Assembly (NCBI GenBank): GCA_001820875.1
Contig: MHRF01000010.1
Location: forward strand, 3,371-67,370
Direction: 5' to 3'
Length of the DNA stretch: 64,000 nucleotides
Origin: Candidatus Taylorbacteria bacterium RIFCSPHIGHO2_01_FULL_46_22b
GTDB lineage: Bacteria > Patescibacteriota > Minisyncoccia > Phycocordibacterales > DSPV01
This document shows positions 3,662 through 48,610 of the stretch, one piece after another (the first letter of the stretch is position 1; every line of letters starts with the position of its first letter). Below the pieces are notes generated by a model. The model searched no databases and had not been told where the DNA came from. It worked only from the letters and a program-made list of their open reading frames with translations. The translations under genes were made by a program, and so were the position numbers.

Positions 3662-5659
3662 ATGAACCCGTTCGTGTTATTTGCTCTCATTAGTTCAGTA
3701 ATCGCAATCATCTACGGTCTTATACTTGCATACAATATAAACAAGCAGCCTGCCGGAAATGCACGTATGCAGGAGATTTCGTCCGCAATCCGCGAAGGTG
3801 CAAAAGCCTATTTGAATCGCCAGTACAAAACGATTGGGGCAATCGCTATTATTCTCACACTCATTCTTGGCGCCTCGCTTGGTTTGAAAATGGCAGCTGG
3901 ATTCTTGGTCGGCGCCATTTTCTCAGCTCTCGCAGGCTATATTGGAATGAACGTCTCTGTTCGCGCAAACGTACGCACAGCTGAAGCCGCACGCAAAGGA
4001 TTGGGAGCAGCGCTCTCCCTTGCTTTCCGCGGAGGTGCAGTCACCGGACTCTTAGTCGTCGGACTTGCACTTCTTGGCGTAACTGGATTTTACGCGATAA
4101 CTGCAGATGTAACGGCACTCATTGGACTTGGATTCGGTGCTTCTCTTATCAGTGTCTTCGCGCGACTTGGAGGCGGAATTTTCACTAAAGCTGCCGACGT
4201 AGGAACTGACCTTGTGGGAAAAGTCGAAGCAGGAATTCCTGAAGATGACCCTCGAAATGCAGGAGTGATCGCAGACAACGTAGGAGACAATGTCGGCGAC
4301 TGCGCCGGCATGGCCGCGGACTTGTTTGAGACATATGCAGTTACCTCGGTAGCAACAATGCTTCTTGGTTCTCTGCTTTTCCCTGATTTTGTAAATGCCA
4401 TTCTCTATCCGCTCGTACTTGGCGCAGCCGCTATCATTGCGTCAATTATTGGTACATGGTTCGTGCGCCTCGGAAAAGGGAAAAATATCATGGGAGCTCT
4501 TTACAAAGGACTGATCGCGGCGGGAATTCTTTCGGCGATTGCCTTCTATCCAATCACTGCAATTCTGATGGAGGGAAATGGAGTGTACACAACACTTGAT
4601 CTCTTTATCGCCGCACTCACCGGACTCGTCGTCACTGGACTCTTGGTCTGGATCACCGAGTACTACACTGCAACCAAATACAAGCCAGTGCAATCAATTG
4701 CAGCCGCCTCTCTTTCCGGCCATGGCACCAATATTATCCAAGGTCTTGCTATCTCAATGAAATCGACAGCTCTTCCAGCTCTGGTAATTGTAGGCGGAAT
4801 TCTTATCACCTATCAATTTGCAGGTCTTTATGGAATCGCGGTTGCTGCCATGTCCATGCTTTCCATGGCAGGCATTATTGTCGCTATCGATGCCTATGGC
4901 CCTATCACTGACAATGCAGGGGGTATTGCTGAAATGGCGAATCTCCCGCAGGAAATACGCGACATCACTGATCCACTTGACGCTGTCGGCAACACCACCA
5001 AAGCCGTCACTAAAGGATATGCGATTGGATCGGCAGGATTGGCAGCACTCGTACTCTTTGCTTCGTACACACAAGAATTCGCCAATATGGGGAGCGAACT
5101 CACTTTTGCACTGGGTGATCCGAAAGTCCTTGTCGGATTGTTTATCGGAGGACTTCTCCCCTATTACTTTGCTGCACTCGCGATGGAAGCAGTCGGAAAA
5201 ACTGCCGGAGCAGTCGTCACTGAAGTACGCCGACAATTCAGAGAAATCAAAGGCATTATGGACGGAAGTGCAAAACCAGATTACGCACGAGCCGTTGATA
5301 TCGTCACTAGCGCTGCCATCAAACAAATGATTGTGCCTGCATTGATTCCAGTACTCGCACCAATTGTGGTCGGGTTTGTCCTAGGGCCAGTAGCACTCGG
5401 CGGATTGCTGGTGGGTTCTATCATCACCGGACTCTTTGTTGCAATCTCGATGACGTCAGGCGGTGGCGCATGGGATAACGCAAAAAAATACATTGAATCT
5501 GGTAACCATGGGGGAAAAGGTAGCGAGGCTCACAAAGCGGCCGTTACGGGAGACACCGTCGGTGATCCGTATAAAGATACGGCGGGGCCTGCGATTAATC
5601 CTATGATCAAGATATTAAATATTGTTGCTCTGCTTTTGGTAGGTCTTCTCGCCAAGTAA
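3662..5659 (+). CDS. hppA: Membrane-bound proton-translocating pyrophosphatase (H+-PPase)
   Basis: 665 aa, polytopic. Hallmark motifs [55 protein letters not shown] and [16 protein letters not shown]. Confidence 0.92.
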
Positions 5660-5770: not shown

Positions 5771-5774
5771 CGAT

Positions 5775-5869
5775 TTGTATAAAGATACGGCGGGGCCTGC
5801 GATTAATCCTATGATTAAAATACTGAACATTGTAGCGCTACCATTAGTCGGACTCTTGGCAAAGTAAAA
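5775..5869 (+). pseudogene. Orphan duplicate of the hppA 3' end (last ~31 codons plus stop)
   Basis: 5775-5869 re-encodes [29 protein letters not shown]. The first ~40 nt are identical to 5565-5605; the rest differs at about 14 synonymous sites and one non-synonymous site (L to P). Confidence 0.6.
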
Positions 5870-22712: not shown

Positions 22713-23633
22713 TTATTTACCCTTGTTGTGGAAATTCCGATGGACATCCCGCAGGTGCTTATCAGTCACATGTGTGTAGATTTGTGTCGTCCCTATATGT
22801 GCATGACCTAATAGTGCCTGCACACTTCGAAGATCCGCGCCGTTTGAGAGAAGGTCAGTGGCAAAACTATGCCGAATCACGTGCGGCGTTACTTTTTTTG
22901 AGATACCGGCCTTAATCGCGTACTGTTTGATCAACCGTTCAATCGAGCGGGGAGTAAGGCCGAGTGTTTTCTTGCCGCCGACAGCCAGTTTTGCTCCACC
23001 TCTTCCAATTTGTATAAAAAGGGAATCATCCATATCAGCACGCTTGGCAAGATACTTTTTGACCGCCTGACGCGCGTCAGGAGAGATAAAAACCACACGA
23101 ACTTTCTCTCCTTTGCCGCGGACACTAAATTCATCTCGATTGAAATCAACATCCCGCGTCAGCGAACAAAGTTCAGACACACGCAATCCCGTTGAAAACA
23201 AAAGTTCAAGAATAGCCCTGTCGCGCAAAGCGGGGGGCTCTTCTCCTTGGGGAGCGCGCAGGAGACGACCGAGCTCATCGGAGGAGATGAGATCGAGAGA
23301 GCGTTCGGGGACCTTGGCAAGTTCAATACGATCAGGCTGAAGGGAAGTCACTCCGCGCTTCATACAGAATTTGAGAAAGGAACGGAGTGCAATCAAATAG
23401 TAGTTCTGCGTCCTTTTCTTGATAGTCCCTGATGGAGCCGGCTGGCGATTCAACCAGAGTCGAAATTCTCGAACTGCATCTTCAGTAATCGATTTCGGGT
23501 TAGTTATTTTTGAAAACTCGAAGAAACGAGAAAGATAGCGGTCATAGTTCTCAACTGTCTTTAAACTTCGCCCTTTCTCTATCTCAACATATTCGAGAAA
23601 CTGACGCTTCATTTTTTCAATTTCTGTTGCCAT
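22713..23633 (-). CDS. xerC: Tyrosine recombinase XerC/XerD family
   Basis: 306 aa. N-terminal SAM-like core-binding domain. Catalytic region HVIRHSFATDLLSNGADLRSVQALLGHAHIGTTQIYTHV (R..H..R..Y). Confidence 0.88.
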   Translation of the reverse strand: MATEIEKMKRQFLEYVEIEKGRSLKTVENYDRYLSRFFEFSKITNPKSITEDAVREFRLWLNRQPAPSGTIKKRTQNYYLIALRSFLKFCMKRGVTSLQPDRIELAKVPERSLDLISSDELGRLLRAPQGEEPPALRDRAILELLFSTGLRVSELCSLTRDVDFNRDEFSVRGKGEKVRVVFISPDARQAVKKYLAKRADMDDSLFIQIGRGGAKLAVGGKKTLGLTPRSIERLIKQYAIKAGISKKVTPHVIRHSFATDLLSNGADLRSVQALLGHAHIGTTQIYTHVTDKHLRDVHRNFHNKGK

Positions 23634-24020: not shown

Positions 24021-24290
24021 AGGAGATAAACTCCTTTGTTCGCTTCGTTCGTTCGGGAGAGAAAAGTATCCTCTTTTTCTCTCCGCACCACAAGAGTGCT
24101 TCCGATTTCTACGTGAGAAATCTAGGTTGCTCACTCACTAGCGAATAACGTTTCTCCTTTCAGCTTTTTCACTTTAGTTCTACAATAGACAGACCGGTGC
24201 AAGACACCGGCGGGGATATAACGGTTGCATATTTTTTTATTTTGCATCACTTTTCCCTTTTTTAGAATTCATTATTCATTATTCATTTTT

Positions 24291-24833
24291 ATGTCAGTTA
24301 TCAAACACAAAGAACAGCGCGTGGGAGTATTTATTGATACACAAAATCTCTATCACAGCGCAAAAAATCTCTATCGCGCCCGCGTTAACTTCGGGCAAGT
24401 CGTCAAAGATGCGCTCGCCGGCAGACATTTGATCCGCGCAGTAGCGTATGTCATTTCAACCGAATCAGGCGAAGAGAAGAATTTCTTCGAAGCACTGGGG
24501 AAGGTTGGGATTGAAGCAAAAACAAAGGATCTCCAAATTTTCGCCGGTGGTGCAAAAAAGGCCGATTGGGACGTCGGGCTCGCGGTTGACGCAATTAAGC
24601 TTGCACCAAAACTTGATGCAGTAATCATCGTTTCCGGAGACGGGGACTTTGTGCCTCTTGTTAAATATCTCCAAGAAAATCAAGGTTGCCAAGTTGAAGT
24701 GGTTTCATTCAGCAAATCTACTTCAGCGAAACTCATAGAAGCGACCGACGACTTCTTTGATCTCGATTCAAACCCGCGCAAATATCTCCTCGGCACCGGA
24801 AGGGGACGTAACAGCGGAACGCCAAGCGAGTAA
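24291..24833 (+). CDS. NYN-domain (LabA-like) protein
   Basis: Start at MSVIKHKEQRVGVFIDTQNLYHSAKN. Motifs DWDVGLAVDAIKLAPKLDAVIIVSGDGDFVPLVKYL are typical of the NYN/LabA PIN-like nuclease fold. Sits between rpsO and pnp. Confidence 0.75.
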   Translation: MSVIKHKEQRVGVFIDTQNLYHSAKNLYRARVNFGQVVKDALAGRHLIRAVAYVISTESGEEKNFFEALGKVGIEAKTKDLQIFAGGAKKADWDVGLAVDAIKLAPKLDAVIIVSGDGDFVPLVKYLQENQGCQVEVVSFSKSTSAKLIEATDDFFDLDSNPRKYLLGTGRGRNSGTPSE

Positions 24834-44259: not shown

Positions 44260-45207
44260 ATGGATGCTGAAAAACGAAAATTACTGGACGAAAAATTCTA
44301 CTTGCTTGCAAAACCCTTGCAGGACGTGATTCTTGATGAAGACGAGAAACTAGAAACTACAGTTGATCTCATAGTACAGAAGTACAAACTTGAACTCGAT
44401 ACTGCACGAATACTGGACGATGAAATCGTTATGGTACTTGGTGGATTTACCAACCCTAAGGACTTTATACGAGCACTTAGTGGAAAACTTGGGACAGATG
44501 CAAGTAAAGCACCCGCAATTGCGCAAGAGATAAACGAAAAAATATTCCGCGCGGTCAAAGACGACCTGCAAAATCTCTATGGACTTCCTATCCCGAAACA
44601 ACCTCAACAAAAACCTTCGCTTGCCACCGAACTTGAAGAAGATGTTGGGCTACGAAAACAACTAGAGCAGGCAAAATCTGCTGAACAGAAACGACCTCTG
44701 TCGGCAGTGTTACAAGATGCGTTACGTGCAGGAGGAAAAGAGACTGAATCTGGAATAACGAATAATGAATTTAGGGAAGAGCAAAATTCAAAATTCAAAA
44801 TTCAAAATTCTGCTAATGAAATTGAACCTCTGCGTACTATGGAACGTGATATGGAATCCGTACGGCATACTGGAACTTCCCGTCCAAGACCAGCGTTTAT
44901 ACCTCCAACTCCAAGAGACAGAGAATCTGGAATAACGAATAATGAATTTAGGGAAGAGCAACTAAAAGAAGAGAAGCCTCCGGTCCCACCAAAACCCCCA
45001 GCTTCTACACCCTTTACCCAAAGCCCAAGACTTCCAGTCCCTCCGCCACCACGTGCACCGAGACAAGAACCCGCCGAAGAGCCCGAGGAGCAACTGAGTC
45101 GCGAAGATATCTTGCGTGGCATTGAAGATCCATCGAGTATTCCACGCGACCGTACCAATAACTCGCCGGTGTACAACGCGGATCCGTATAGAGAACCCAC
45201 AGAGTAG
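44260..45207 (+). CDS. Proline-rich repeat protein (T4SS-like operon)
   Basis: 315 aa. A 39-bp perfect direct repeat encodes ESGITNNEFREEQ twice. A (caaaatt)x4 heptanucleotide tract sits at 44782-44809. The C-terminus is Pro-rich (PPVPPKPPASTPFTQSPRLPVPPPPRAP). Confidence 0.5.
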   Translation: MDAEKRKLLDEKFYLLAKPLQDVILDEDEKLETTVDLIVQKYKLELDTARILDDEIVMVLGGFTNPKDFIRALSGKLGTDASKAPAIAQEINEKIFRAVKDDLQNLYGLPIPKQPQQKPSLATELEEDVGLRKQLEQAKSAEQKRPLSAVLQDALRAGGKETESGITNNEFREEQNSKFKIQNSANEIEPLRTMERDMESVRHTGTSRPRPAFIPPTPRDRESGITNNEFREEQLKEEKPPVPPKPPASTPFTQSPRLPVPPPPRAPRQEPAEEPEEQLSREDILRGIEDPSSIPRDRTNNSPVYNADPYREPTE

Positions 45208-45212
45208 GGGGA

Positions 45213-45232
45213 AGCGAAGAGCGACTAGCGAG
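45213..45232. repeat. IR motif copy 1 (agcgaagagcgactagcgag)
   Basis: Near-copy (3 mismatches in 20) of 45704-45723; inverted relative to 45269-45284. Confidence 0.5.
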
Positions 45233-45268
45233 CAGAAAAGTTAGTTGTTACACTTGGTAGTACTATTC

Positions 45269-45284
45269 GCTAATCGCTTTTCAC
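45269..45284. repeat. IR motif copy 2 (gctaatcgcttttcac)
   Basis: One mismatch to 46103-46118; reverse complement of the agcgaaaagcgattag motif. Confidence 0.5.
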
Positions 45285-45297
45285 TTGTCGCTACGTT

Positions 45298-45705
45298 ATG
45301 CGCTTTCAAGTCCCACAATTTATTGAGATAGAAGATAAGGTATTTGGACCATTTACCTTTAAGCAATTCGTATATATCGCCGGCGGAACAGGTATCTGCT
45401 TTCTGCTCTTATATACACTGCCGAGATTTCTCGCGATCATAGCGGTTATCCCTGTCGCCGCACTTTCCCTTGCGCTCGCCTTTTACCGAATAAACAACAA
45501 ACCGTTCGTGCAAATGGTGGAAGCTTTCTTCAGATACATTATCGGCACACGTCTCTATTTGTGGCACAGAACAGATAAACAAGTAACCGGAAAAGCACCG
45601 CTCGCTCGGCAATACGAACAAATAAAAATCCCTACGCTCGAAGGAAGCAAACTAAAAGATATTCAGTGGAGTTTGGGAGTGAAGAAAGATGGAGTTAGCG
45701 AATAG
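45298..45705 (+). CDS. PrgI/VirB3-like small membrane protein
   Basis: 135 aa with two adjacent TM helices (YIAGGTGICFLLLYTL; FLAIIAVIPVAALSLALAFY), positioned directly upstream of the VirB4-family ATPase as in Gram-positive conjugation loci. Confidence 0.5.
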   Translation: MRFQVPQFIEIEDKVFGPFTFKQFVYIAGGTGICFLLLYTLPRFLAIIAVIPVAALSLALAFYRINNKPFVQMVEAFFRYIIGTRLYLWHRTDKQVTGKAPLARQYEQIKIPTLEGSKLKDIQWSLGVKKDGVSE

Positions 45706-45719
45706 CGAAAAGCGATTAG
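45704..45719. repeat. IR motif copy 3 (agcgaaaagcgattag)
   Basis: Perfect 16-bp inverted repeat with 46103-46118, flanking the four-helix-bundle gene. Overlaps the stop of the PrgI-like gene. Confidence 0.6.
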
Positions 45720-45740
45720 AGAGCAAAAATACTGAAAAAT

Positions 45741-46106
45741 GTGCCGAAACTAAAGACATACAAGGAGTTAATCGTATGGCAGAAATCAGTGACAATTGTT
45801 GAACATGTGTATACACTCACCAAAAACTTCCCTAAGGATGAAATATACGGACTGACTAGCCAGATGAGACGAGCGGCAATTTCTATACCATCTAATATCG
45901 CGGAGGGATGGTCGCGAGAAACTCGAGGAGATTTTGCCTATTTCTTGAGAATCGCCCGCGGATCTAGTTCAGAACTCGAAACTCAACTAGAAATTAGCCA
46001 GCGATTAACGCTTATAACCGATACACGTTATAATGAAGTGAGTGAATTGCTTTCTGAAGTATCACGCATGTTGAATGCAATCTTGCGTAAATTACCTAAT
46101 CGCTAA
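45741..46106 (+). CDS. Four-helix-bundle protein of the 23S-rRNA-IVS-protein / DGR Avd family
   Basis: 121 aa. LIVWQKSVTIVEHVYTLTKNFPKDEIYGLTSQMRRAAISIPSNIAEGWSRETRGDFAYFLRIARGSSSELETQLEISQRL matches the GLTSQ.RRAA.SIPSNIAEG...DF..FL.IA.GS..ELETQL signature. Confidence 0.8.
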   Translation: MPKLKTYKELIVWQKSVTIVEHVYTLTKNFPKDEIYGLTSQMRRAAISIPSNIAEGWSRETRGDFAYFLRIARGSSSELETQLEISQRLTLITDTRYNEVSELLSEVSRMLNAILRKLPNR

Positions 46107-46118
46107 TCGCTTTTCGCT
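46103..46118. repeat. IR motif copy 4 (ctaatcgcttttcgct)
   Basis: Perfect reverse complement of 45704-45719. Confidence 0.6.
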
Positions 46119-46126
46119 TTTTCCCT

Positions 46127-46774
46127 ATGGCAGCATCTTCAAAATCATCACAGGAGTTTGTCCCCGTTAAAGAAGTTCGAGACGGCGTATTGGTCCTGCA
46201 GGATAATTCACTCCGAGCGGTTCTGATGGTTTCCTCTATTAATTTTGCTCTCCAATCGGAAGAAAGCCAGACGGCTATCGTGGCTCAATTCCAAAATTTC
46301 CTAAACTCCCTAGACTTTTCTGTCGAAATTTCCATGCAGTCCCGAAAGATGGATATAAAACCTTACCTTTCTCTCCTTGAGGAACGGTACCAGAAGCAAC
46401 AGAGCGAGCTTATGAAAATACAAACTCGAGAGTATATAGAGTTCATCAAAACCTTTACAGACAATACAAATATTATGACGAAGACATTCTTCATAACTGT
46501 CCCGTATGGTGCAACCATGGTTTCGCTCAAGAAAAACCCTCTGGAAACAATCAGCGGGTTTGTAAGAAAATCTGATACATCTAAAAAAACCAAAGGGGAA
46601 GTTGATGAATTCGAGGAACACAAAGAACAATTGCAACAACGTCTTGCGGTAGTAGAACAAGGGTTAGTCCGATGCGGTCTTAAAACCGCTCGGCTCGGAT
46701 CAGAAGAACTTATCGAACTCTTTTACAGACTTTTCAACCCCGGAGAGGCACAACAGCGAATACCGACTTCATAA
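46127..46774 (+). CDS. VirB4/TraE-family conjugative ATPase, N-terminal domain (upstream of in-frame TAA)
   Basis: VPVKEVRDGVLVLQDNSLRAVLMVSSINFALQSEESQTAIVAQFQNFLNSLDFSVEISMQSRKMD matches the N-terminal domain of Gram-positive VirB4 homologues (PrgJ/TraE/TcpF type). Ends at TAA 46772-46774, in the same frame as the next ORF. Confidence 0.7.
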   Translation: MAASSKSSQEFVPVKEVRDGVLVLQDNSLRAVLMVSSINFALQSEESQTAIVAQFQNFLNSLDFSVEISMQSRKMDIKPYLSLLEERYQKQQSELMKIQTREYIEFIKTFTDNTNIMTKTFFITVPYGATMVSLKKNPLETISGFVRKSDTSKKTKGEVDEFEEHKEQLQQRLAVVEQGLVRCGLKTARLGSEELIELFYRLFNPGEAQQRIPTS

Positions 46775-46780
46775 AAATTT

Positions 46781-48610
46781 ATGGGCATTTTTGACTTTTT
46801 AAAAAAGAAAGAGCAGGCACTACCGTCGATTCTCCCTGGGGAAATCTATGAGGCAGCTTCGCTTGAACTCAAAGATATTATCGCTCCGGGGGCACTCAAA
46901 ATCAGTCCTCGTCAGCTAAACTTGGGGGAGAAAATAGCACGAACATTCTTTGTGGTTTCCTATCCGCGTTATCTCAATGACAACTGGTTCTCACCGGTCA
47001 TCAACCTCGACAAAGTATTTGACATCGCTATCCACGTACATCCGATAGACACTTCGACAATTCTCCGAACATTCCAAAAGAAGGTGGCCGAGGTACAAAG
47101 CCAAATCTCCATGCGCGAAGACAAGGGGTTGGTGCGCGATCCCAAACTCGACACGGCTTACCAAGATCTGGAACAGTTGCGAGATTCGCTCCAGCAAGCG
47201 CAGGAAAAACTATTTGAAGTCGGATTGTATGTCACTCTGTATGGAAGTACCGAGGAGGAATTGACCAAATTGGAAACCGAAATAAAAACCATGCTCGACG
47301 CACGCCTAGTGTATCTAAAACCCGCGCTCTTTCAGCAAGAACAAGGTTTTATAAGCACGGTGCCCTTGGGGGACGACCAACTGCTGGTACACAACAAACT
47401 CAACACGTCTCCGCTATCAAGTATTTTCCCTTTTGTATCGTTCGACCTCACGTCAGACAAAGGAATATTGTATGGTATCAATCGACATAACGCCTCTCTC
47501 GTGCTGTTCGATCGATTTTCACTTGAGAACTACAACTCAATCACATTCGCGAAATCCGGATCAGGAAAATCGTACGCAACCAAACTTGAAATCTTACGCA
47601 CACTTATGTTTGATGCTGATGTGATTGTCATCGATCCCGAACGCGAGTATGAACACCTTGCGGAAGTTACCGGCGGGAAATATTTCAATATTTCGCTCAA
47701 TTCAGAACATCACATAAATCCCTTCGATCTTCCACCCACACGGGAAGGGGAATCGGCGGCAGACGTACTTCGATCAAACATAATCAACCTTGTCGGCCTG
47801 TTTCGAATCATGCTCGGCGGGCTTTCGCCTGAAGAAGATGCGCTGATTGATCGCGCGATTACCGAAACATACGCCCTGAAAGATATTACTCCTGACAGTG
47901 ATTTCTCAAAAATGTCCGCGCCATTGATGTCAGATTTTGAAATGGTACTTTCCGGTATGGACGGTAGCACATCACTCGTGCAGAAACTTTCGAAGTACAC
48001 CAAGGGTACGTGGTCAGGTTTCATCAACCAACCGTCAAACGTCAATATCAATGATCGGTTTATTGTATTCTCCGTGCGAGATATGGAAGACGAACTTAAA
48101 CCAGTCGCCATGTACATTGTCATGCACTTTATTTGGAATGCAATTAGACAGAATCTCCGCAAGCGCCTCCTCGTCATCGACGAAGCATGGTGGATGATGA
48201 AATCAGAAGACACTGCTTCGTTTCTTTTGTCGCTTGCGAAACGTGGGCGCAAATATTTTTTGGGACTTGCCACTATCACTCAAGATGTTGATGATTTCCT
48301 CCGATCCCCCTACGGCCTCCCGATACTCACCAACTCATCAATTCAGATGCTCCTGAAACAATCACCGACCTCTATTGAACGCATCAAAGAAGTGTTTAGT
48401 CTTACCGACGAAGAAAAATACCTTCTGCTTGAATCGGATGTCGGAGAGGGAATCTTCTTTGTTGGACTCAAACATGTAGCCATAAAAATAATCGCATCAT
48501 ACACCGAAGATCAAATCATCACCTCTGATCCTTCACAACTCTTGGCAATTAAAAAAGCAAAAAAAGAGTTTCTTGCACAAGGAGGAGATAGCGGTACTCC
48601 TCTCAATTAA
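46781..48610 (+). CDS. VirB4/TraE-family conjugative ATPase, central and ATPase domains (downstream of in-frame TAA)
   Basis: IAPGALKISPRQLNLGEKIARTFFVVSYPRYL (conserved VirB4 block), Walker A ITFAKSGSGKSYATK and Walker B LLVIDEAWWMM. Frame identical to 46127..46774, separated only by TAA-AAA-TTT. Confidence 0.8.
   Translation: MGIFDFLKKKEQALPSILPGEIYEAASLELKDIIAPGALKISPRQLNLGEKIARTFFVVSYPRYLNDNWFSPVINLDKVFDIAIHVHPIDTSTILRTFQKKVAEVQSQISMREDKGLVRDPKLDTAYQDLEQLRDSLQQAQEKLFEVGLYVTLYGSTEEELTKLETEIKTMLDARLVYLKPALFQQEQGFISTVPLGDDQLLVHNKLNTSPLSSIFPFVSFDLTSDKGILYGINRHNASLVLFDRFSLENYNSITFAKSGSGKSYATKLEILRTLMFDADVIVIDPEREYEHLAEVTGGKYFNISLNSEHHINPFDLPPTREGESAADVLRSNIINLVGLFRIMLGGLSPEEDALIDRAITETYALKDITPDSDFSKMSAPLMSDFEMVLSGMDGSTSLVQKLSKYTKGTWSGFINQPSNVNINDRFIVFSVRDMEDELKPVAMYIVMHFIWNAIRQNLRKRLLVIDEAWWMMKSEDTASFLLSLAKRGRKYFLGLATITQDVDDFLRSPYGLPILTNSSIQMLLKQSPTSIERIKEVFSLTDEEKYLLLESDVGEGIFFVGLKHVAIKIIASYTEDQIITSDPSQLLAIKKAKKEFLAQGGDSGTPLN

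Follow-up and report, generated by a model that had tools for sequence, protein, structure and literature searches.

The 64,000-nt stretch analysed here (the window) belongs to contig MHRF01000010.1 of Candidatus Taylorbacteria bacterium RIFCSPHIGHO2_01_FULL_46_22b and includes a type IV secretion system (T4SS)-like operon of the candidate phyla radiation (CPR). Between two genes of this operon lies a small gene of the IVP family, known from the intervening sequences (IVSs) of rRNA, which is enclosed by inverted arrays of 7-nt repeats. A second pair of arrays of the same kind, enclosing no open reading frame (ORF), occupies the preceding gene junction. In window coordinates, the features concerned are the following.

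45212..45243 (+): arm A of the ORF-less hairpin, with heptamers AAGCGAA GAGCGAC TAGCGAG of the same family
45263..45293 (+): arm B of the ORF-less hairpin; along 24 nt it shares 92% identity with arm D
45298..45705 (+): prgI-like (VirB3-like) host gene (PF12666, E 2.3e-10), conserved in relatives
45696..45722 (+): left arm C of the IVP cassette, TAGCGAA TAGCGAA AAGCGAT TAG, which holds the prgI-like TAG stop at 45703-45705
45741..46106 (+): IVP gene with GTG start, encoding a 121-aa four-helix-bundle protein (PF05635/TIGR02436; profiles and structure model)
46096..46121 (+): right arm D of the IVP cassette, CTAATCG CTAATCG CTTTTCG CTTTT, complementary to arm C
46127..46774 (+): virB4-N, the N-terminal part of a naturally split VirB4, 3' of the cassette (profile search)
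46781..48610 (+): virB4-C, the C-terminal VirB4 ATPase part (NF045971, 378.7 bits, cut-off 325)

Anatomy of the cassette and its host operon

The product of 45741-46106 is a member of the IVP family, to which Avd, a protein of diversity-generating retroelements (DGRs), is merely a distant relative. Specifically, it matches PF05635 (23S_rRNA_IVP) at model positions 1-106 of 106 (E 4.5e-41; 139.8 bits, cut-off 33.8), and scores 132.9 bits against TIGR02436 'four helix bundle protein' (cut-off 24) and 149.3 bits against the subfamily model NF008911 (cut-off 137). An AlphaFold2 (AF2) model with pLDDT 93 has helices at residues 7-27, 32-58, 62-88, and 94-117. With this model, Foldseek returns 2gsc as the best structural match (TM 0.88) and 2rld at TM 0.84; both are solved IVP structures with five chains per entry. 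No recognisable catalytic fold emerges from the AF2 model and the Foldseek search. The family comprises many thousands of genes, annotated merely as 'four helix bundle protein', and we know of no function for it outside DGRs.

A preliminary description of this locus had assigned the gene to the 23S-IVS/Avd type, which the profile scores bear out, and had judged that a full DGR was not supported here. An orphan Avd left by a decayed DGR would be in keeping with the distant homology—i.e. weak matches to NF033474 (36.3 bits) and PF22296 (35.2 bits), and TM values of 0.76-0.78 to the DGR Avd structures 4dwl and 8ub7. However, both Avd models stay under their cut-offs (80 and 40 bits, respectively), while the IVP models score far above theirs, and the cassette plan described below is common to hundreds of IVP genes with no reverse transcriptase (RT) nearby. 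Across the window, an RT domain is absent from the 40 scanned ORFs of at least 121 aa, and none of the four direct-repeat families of at least 40 nt resembles a template repeat/variable repeat (TR/VR) pair. With no RT, no TR/VR pair, and Avd scores under cut-off, we reject the DGR reading, whose probability we consider minimal.

Arms C and D share a perfect 16-nt inverted repeat (45704-45719 and 46103-46118), already noted in the preliminary description, which can be lengthened to 22 nt (91% complementary) or 23 nt (87%). When 45685-46135 is folded as RNA, the check proposed there for a long stem around the gene, C and D pair around the ORF in both the minimum free energy and the centroid structures (overall z -2.5), with a duplex energy of -35.2 kcal/mol. 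The second hairpin it had seen in diverged copies of the motif is recovered as well, with the copies at 45213-45228 on the + strand and 45263-45285 on the - strand: 45212-45293 folds at -33.6 kcal/mol (z -3.2), the A:B duplex reaching -34.2 kcal/mol. The prgI-like gene is indeed bracketed by the repeats, with arms B and C on its two sides. Two pairings of the four arms, A:B with C:D and A:D with B:C, are possible at similar energies (-34 to -40 kcal/mol). The motif AGCGAAAAGCGATTAG, with at most 3 mismatches, has 7 matches in the window, all of them within 45213-46118; the shuffle mean is 0.75, and 0 of 100 shuffles reach 7.

Two aspects were not part of that earlier reading, namely the heptamer structure of the arms and the presence of neighbouring stop and start codons within or adjoining them. 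The arms consist of tandem heptamers AGCGAWW, several with a TAG end, and 45696-45719 forms a tandem repeat of period 7 with 3.4 copies. The TAG that ends the prgI-like gene falls within arm C; the last codons of the IVP gene (PNR) and its TAA stop fall within arm D, and the virB4-N ATG at 46127 comes 5 nt after arm D in the context CTATG. Similarly, arm A begins 5 nt past the stop of the ORF at 44260-45207, and only 4 nt separate arm B from the prgI-like ATG at 45298. The IVP cassette and the ORF-less hairpin therefore each fit exactly between adjacent operon genes.

The IVP cassette holds no promoter-like site beyond chance and is thus probably read through from the operon. It encodes no transposase or recombinase, the four-helix bundle being its sole ORF, and the nearest integrase-family gene (22713-23633) is 22 kb off. 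The location is not an rRNA gene: an Rfam search of the window returns four tRNAs only, and the cassette stands between protein-coding genes. VirB4 is encoded 3' of it by two ORFs (215 aa and 609 aa) 6 nt apart, and this two-gene split is genuine, not a pseudogene, because it is conserved wherever both halves are detected in related loci. Chromosomal core genes make up the surroundings in the window (nusA, H+-PPase, tig, clpP, rny, pnp, dnaA, dnaN, yidC, and ruvABC).

A common plan in IVP cassettes of many phyla

We compared ~170 related loci in total (L-numbers denote fetched loci). For the cassette plan, the sample consists of 80 loci with the closest IVP relatives in GTDB species genomes together with the cassettes from related T4SS operons, which gives 93 cassettes; the GTDB loci span CPR, Bacteroidota, Proteobacteria, Planctomycetota, Acidobacteriota, Firmicutes, and others. 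The flanking inverted repeats of IVP loci have a median ungapped score of 15.5, compared with 8 in mismatched-locus controls, and a median flank duplex energy of -46.6 vs -30.6 kcal/mol (p 5e-14). Among arms of at least 16 nt, the best period is 7 nt in 60 of 85 and 8 nt in another 20. The repeat unit itself varies by lineage (e.g. AGTGGTT, TTAGCTG, GGTTCAGA, and GGGGATA), usually with a TAG end, and TAG is the commonest trinucleotide in the arms (7.4% vs 2.1% in the background). Chains of 3-5 TAGs set 7-8 nt apart are present in 39 of the 93 upstream flanks but absent from all 93 shuffled ones, five being the maximum on the left side.

The placement between genes is equally regular. Of 76 loci, 55 have the two neighbours on the IVP strand, and only 2 have both on the opposite one. 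Where an upstream ORF of at least 80 codons is present, 22 of 58 cassettes have its stop within the left arm and most others have it within ~25 nt; this stop is TAG in 34 of the 58. On the other side, the first ATG of the downstream ORF is found -10 to +15 nt from the right-arm end in 41 of 66 cases. The gene pairs that are interrupted include sdhA|sdhB (11-12 loci), PRiA4_ORF3-like|NA37 (7-8), and x|prgI (7), as well as atpA|atpG and PglZ|BrxL, and an rRNA context is found in 0 of 20 sampled IVP loci. The window cassette is a typical member of this general plan, intra-operonic and sense-oriented.

The sdhA|sdhB cassette of many Flavobacteriia (~2400-2900 of each locus) recurs at an orthologous position across genera, in L002, L006, L008, L011, L012, L013, L051, L052, L074, L076, and L080.

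Inserts at the junctions of related T4SS-like operons

Using VirB4-C as the query, we retrieved 80 related T4SS-like operons (73-86% identity), in which the order prgI - virB4N - virB4C is constant. Most of the junctions in question are empty, as an insert reading of the window cassette predicts: the prgI>virB4N spacer is at most 34 nt, with no insert, in 40 of 67 loci, and the virB4N>virB4C spacer at most 32 nt, again with no insert, in 50 of 77. At tight junctions the stop and start codons often overlap or abut. IVP cassettes, by contrast, are confined to a minority of these operons, with 15 across ~80 loci distributed over three junctions, all co-oriented with the operon.

Upstream of prgI, 7 loci: L082, L089, L091, L096 (partial), L118 (25% identity), L130, L146
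At prgI>virB4N, 2 loci: the window, L093
At virB4N>virB4C, 4 loci: L081, L105, L128, L150
Divergent TIGR02436 members at virB4N>virB4C, 2 loci: L091, L122

The orthologous junctions thus vary in the presence or absence of the gene, and copies sit at different sites, as expected of a mobile element. The alternative that IVP is a dedicated accessory or regulatory part of the CPR T4SS-like machinery would fit the 15 cassettes in ~80 related loci, and 7 of 20 CPR-titled GTDB loci with the nearest IVP relatives do lie in the same operon, most of them directly 5' of prgI and one of them from Saccharibacteria. Instead of repeated invasion, this share could reflect vertical inheritance with the operon or a function for it; a preference of the element for this operon is another reading. 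There is a bias in the GTDB sample, however, because it was selected by similarity to the IVP of the window operon. Conserved presence and position, as for a core T4SS component, are not seen, since most related operons lack the gene and its position varies among three junctions. In addition, the same family with the same kind of arms sits between sdhA|sdhB, atpA|atpG, PglZ|BrxL, and many other pairs in other phyla, and the junctions it uses in this operon are also taken by ORF-less hairpins and by other cargo. We consider a dedicated T4SS component improbable.

Among those other occupants, ORF-less heptamer hairpins are found at other junctions in L133, L101, L105, L087, L151, and others. Genes for GxxExxY proteins (TIGR04256, PD-(D/E)XK) stand at operon junctions in sense orientation (L082 2712-3107, L118 3573-3932, and a truncated copy at L083 1135-1383), with arms that are again inverted heptamer arrays, of the ATACTAA/ACGAATA type. 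L087 has at 1624-1753 an ORF-less hairpin with the arms of the L083 GxxExxY cassette, located at a different junction.

Arms are shared within genomes. In L081, the closest relative and from the same metagenome, all three cassettes are built from an AGCTTAG/GGCTTGG unit; a pair of them lack an ORF and have loops homologous to each other, and the third carries an IVP 51% identical to that of the window at a different junction. Near-perfect arm matches of at least 13 nt between junctions occur in 8 of 59 pairs from the same locus, compared with 8 of 600 between loci. This comparison of junction segments replaced strict tandem-array detection, which was underpowered for the purpose (6 pairs). Across genomes, the arms of L150 (TAGCGATTAGGGAATAGCGATTAG and CTAATCGCTAAACGCTAATCGCTA) are close to those of the window, while its IVP is 49% identical and at another junction. 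Judged from sequence, the IVP-bearing and ORF-less copies appear to fit an accessory element family with autonomous-looking members and deletion derivatives.

A second kind of hairpin-bracketed insert is found at the same junctions of CPR operons. Here a GC-rich palindrome, GTCATTCCCGCGAAAGCGGGAATCC, encloses either no gene or a small GIY-YIG-like gene, named from its motif and with no match in the family library (L088 2311-2591 and 3547-3828, L126 2896-3177); the palindrome is also present in L119, L123, L121, L104, and L120. Separately, the prgI>virB4N spacer of L128 is filled by a palindrome, AAGGTCNGACCTT, similar to a perfect one, TCAACGTCAAGGTCCGACCTTGACGTTGA, which lies in frame in L081 (1795-1825) within the homologue of ORF 44260-45207.

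In the window, ORF 44260-45207 contains a repeat of its own.

44746..44810 (+): weak heptamer inverted repeat of another unit, GAATAAC GAATAAT GAATTT / AAATTCA x4

We rejected it as a cassette, as its fold is no more stable than those of shuffles (z +0.66), and regard it as a possible decayed relic. The ACGAATA unit in this ORF resembles the arms of the GxxExxY cassettes of relatives. A 49-nt segment encoding ESGITNNEFREEQ is present twice (44736-44784 and 44913-44961, 177 nt apart), and the four AAATTCA units (44782-44810) lie between the two copies and are partly complementary to them, the predicted fold being unstable. Further away, a 275-nt intergenic region 5' of a NYN-domain gene (24021-24295) folds far better than shuffles (z -3.6) with no Rfam match; it has TAGCGAATAACG at 24139 and ends in ATTCATT x3 (24267-24287), directly before an ATG at 24292. 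It may be what is left of a heptamer-armed cassette, or an RNA of unrelated origin. Lastly, the final 96 nt of the H+-pyrophosphatase gene, stop included (5564-5659), are duplicated at 5772-5867 with 80% identity, 208 nt downstream. Between the two copies lie 112 nt with many short hairpins, an arrangement suggestive of an insertion by which the copy of the gene end was brought in or displaced.

Interpretation and comparison with known systems

The stem is maintained by compensation. RNAalifold, applied to 8 cassettes from orthologous Flavobacterium sites, again yields the terminal stem, with compensatory double changes in 8-9 of 21 pairs. L035 and L031/L032, whose arm units are 8 nt long (alignment columns 25-59 and 526-563), differ by CAAAG>CTAAG in every left unit and by the complementary CTTTG>CTTAG in every right unit. 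As the same substitution is found in all units of both arms of L035, units and arms evolve in concert, by conversion or slippage. Similarity of arms and similarity of proteins are weakly correlated (rho 0.16), and the nominal p overstates this evidence because the pairs are not independent.

The anatomy of the locus, the plan of the 93 cassettes, the mostly empty orthologous junctions, the sharing of arms within genomes, and the compensatory evolution of those arms are established observations. Our preferred explanation, to which we give a probability of roughly 0.7, is that 45696-46121 is an IVS-type, promoterless insertion of ~425 bp, in which an IVP gene within inverted 7-nt arrays sits in sense orientation at the prgI stop/virB4-N start of a chromosomal T4SS-like CPR operon, and that 45212-45293 is an ORF-less derivative of the same repeat family.

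Under this explanation, the cassette would be transcribed within the operon mRNA, where arms C and D would pair into a stem of ~23 bp with the prgI stop and the virB4-N start meeting at its base. By analogy, because homologous stems of 23S rRNA IVSs are cut by RNase III, the same enzyme could cut the C:D stem, so that the IVP message would be set free and the operon transcript divided into upstream and downstream halves. Alternatively or additionally, ribosomes that end prgI translation within arm C may melt the stem and unmask the virB4-N start, which would restore the coupling once given by the tight ancestral junction. The periodic TAGs, for their part, could stop incoming ribosomes in any frame, as 7 and 8 are not multiples of 3 and a stop is thereby offered in every frame, so that insertion at a gene boundary would be tolerated. 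The element would spread rarely, and ORF-less copies would be its deletion derivatives.

Several findings weigh against parts of this insertion model, in addition to the 7 of 20 CPR loci in the same operon. No RNase III gene is found among the scanned ORFs of at least 166 aa in the window. Neither a target-site duplication nor a clean filled/empty pair emerges from the 81 loci fetched, because these include no relatives close enough, and a direct repeat outside the window arms is not obvious. Flavobacteriia cassettes occupy orthologous sites across species, with flanks 80-93% and cassettes 69-89% identical; residence can therefore be very long and movement rare. As such, the term 'mobile' used in the preliminary description holds in the sense of an accessory insert, refined to occasional rather than frequent movement. 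Of 71 left arms, 35 contain a stop in each of the three frames, compared with 23 of 71 in the control orientation, an enrichment so modest that we dropped a three-frame-stop design as a rule and kept it as a contributing feature. Finally, the mismatches within arms comprise 81 of G.U type and 118 of A.C type, with no sense-strand excess of G.U, and the antisense duplex is slightly more stable than the sense duplex in 59 of 93 cassettes. Selection of the stem specifically as sense RNA is therefore unsupported.

This lack of a sense-strand bias would be expected if the arms acted at the DNA level—i.e. as a cruciform or hairpin for transposition, recombination, or slippage, as in IS200/IS605 ends, REP/RAYT, or integron attC—with the RNA stem incidental. 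The concerted evolution of all units in both arms (L035 vs L031) fits conversion or slippage, the arms are common to ORF-less and ORF-bearing copies, and a PD-(D/E)XK nuclease-family protein, GxxExxY, is an alternative cargo in similar arms. Homologous rRNA stems, however, are proven RNase III substrates (PMC4990558). The orientation bias (55 sense vs 2 antisense) and the position of the arms at stop and start codons are expected if transcription or translation matter, and IVP has no recognisable catalytic fold. On balance we hold a DNA-level role to be unlikely, though it carries more weight than the other alternatives, and continue to favour the IVS-type insertion.

Avd is a pentamer that binds nucleic acid, and TRAP recognises (G/U)AG repeats. 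The homology to Avd and the five-TAG maximum of left arms suggest, as a speculation, that IVP binds the arm repeats. A broader proposal, which we offer tentatively and expect to fail rather than hold, is that heptamer/TAG cassettes form an undescribed, phylum-spanning class of operon elements of which rRNA IVSs are a special case. Such elements would carry swappable IVP or GxxExxY cargo, insert in sense, supply the upstream stop, and rejoin stop and start, and a pentameric IVP would read up to five UAG repeats in a TRAP-like manner, leading to RNA processing, arm homogenisation, or spread.

The layout suggests a widespread, barely described kind of operon-dwelling insert, and although the window locus is itself moderately interesting, it is the general pattern behind it that deserves follow-up. 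If the shared plan—cassettes kept in sense, arms with periodic TAGs, a stop and a start meeting at the base of the stem, derivatives that lack the ORF, and more than one kind of cargo—holds experimentally, the whole IVP family becomes a testable RNA- or DNA-level element inside operons, rRNA operons included. The CPR T4SS-like operon is thought to be central to the episymbiotic lifestyle, and the cassette, which interrupts an otherwise tight and probably translationally coupled prgI-virB4 junction, bears on its expression. In practical terms, spurious gene ends and small ORFs arise from the TAG arrays, which may also mislead repeat and CRISPR finders. A figure legend of a large CRISPR survey names '23S rRNA IVP' among CRISPR-array-associated proteins (PMC10910872); the periodic arms might account for this, whether the association is real or artefactual.

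The closest known systems resemble the cassette in different respects. Avd of DGRs (4dwl, 8ub7) shares a homologous four-helix-bundle fold, but the window IVP has no RT or TR/VR pair, scores under the Avd cut-offs, and is flanked by heptamer inverted repeats, which to our knowledge are not a described DGR feature. Miniature inverted-repeat transposable elements and repetitive extragenic palindromes are alike in their short terminal inverted repeats, in having ORF-less copies that share arms with ORF-bearing ones of one genome, and in an intergenic, intra-operon placement with presence or absence varying among relatives. Unlike these, cassettes of the window type encode no transposase or RAYT, and their arms are tandem 7-8-nt TAG repeats, not a unique terminal inverted repeat, in nearly strict sense orientation; a target-site duplication was not seen among the fetched loci. 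GxxExxY cassettes occupy the same junctions in the same orientation in related operons, within similar inverted heptamer arrays (ACGAATA / ATACTAA); their cargo differs, as it comes from a nuclease superfamily, and the window has none of them save the possible arm relics at 44746-44810 and 24267-24287.

IVS elements with an IVP ORF have been known since the 1990s, and the suggestion of their former mobility is equally old. The window cassette differs from the rRNA IVSs of Leptospira, Coxiella burnetii, and others in that its host is a protein-coding operon, not an rRNA gene, with arms that overlap or abut the host stop and start, and in having an ORF-less copy at the adjacent junction; excision by RNase III would apply to it by analogy only. 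IVP ORFs are also known from CPR insertions in both 16S and 23S rRNA (PMC11270868). Our full-text search of an incomplete collection finds heptamers described for the Coxiella IVS only, and no general account of IVP arms outside rRNA, of the general heptamer/TAG arm plan, of near-strict sense orientation with stop and start at the stem base, or of ORF-less and GxxExxY companions. The likeness to rRNA IVSs extends to the protein family, to terminal inverted repeats that form a long stem around the ORF, and, as read-through would imply for the window cassette, to transcription within a host transcript. The Coxiella element has a terminal stem of 28 bp and three tandem heptamers 5' of its S23p ORF; the stem is cut by RNase III at the first heptamer, and strains differ in the number of heptamers (PMC4990558). 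The two elements are similar in size (~430 nt), and both carry tandem heptamers in the 5' arm (GACAGAT x3 in Coxiella; PMC4990558). The preliminary description had called the architecture IVS-like, and in its stem, its heptamers, and its ORF layout the window cassette matches the Coxiella 23S IVS.

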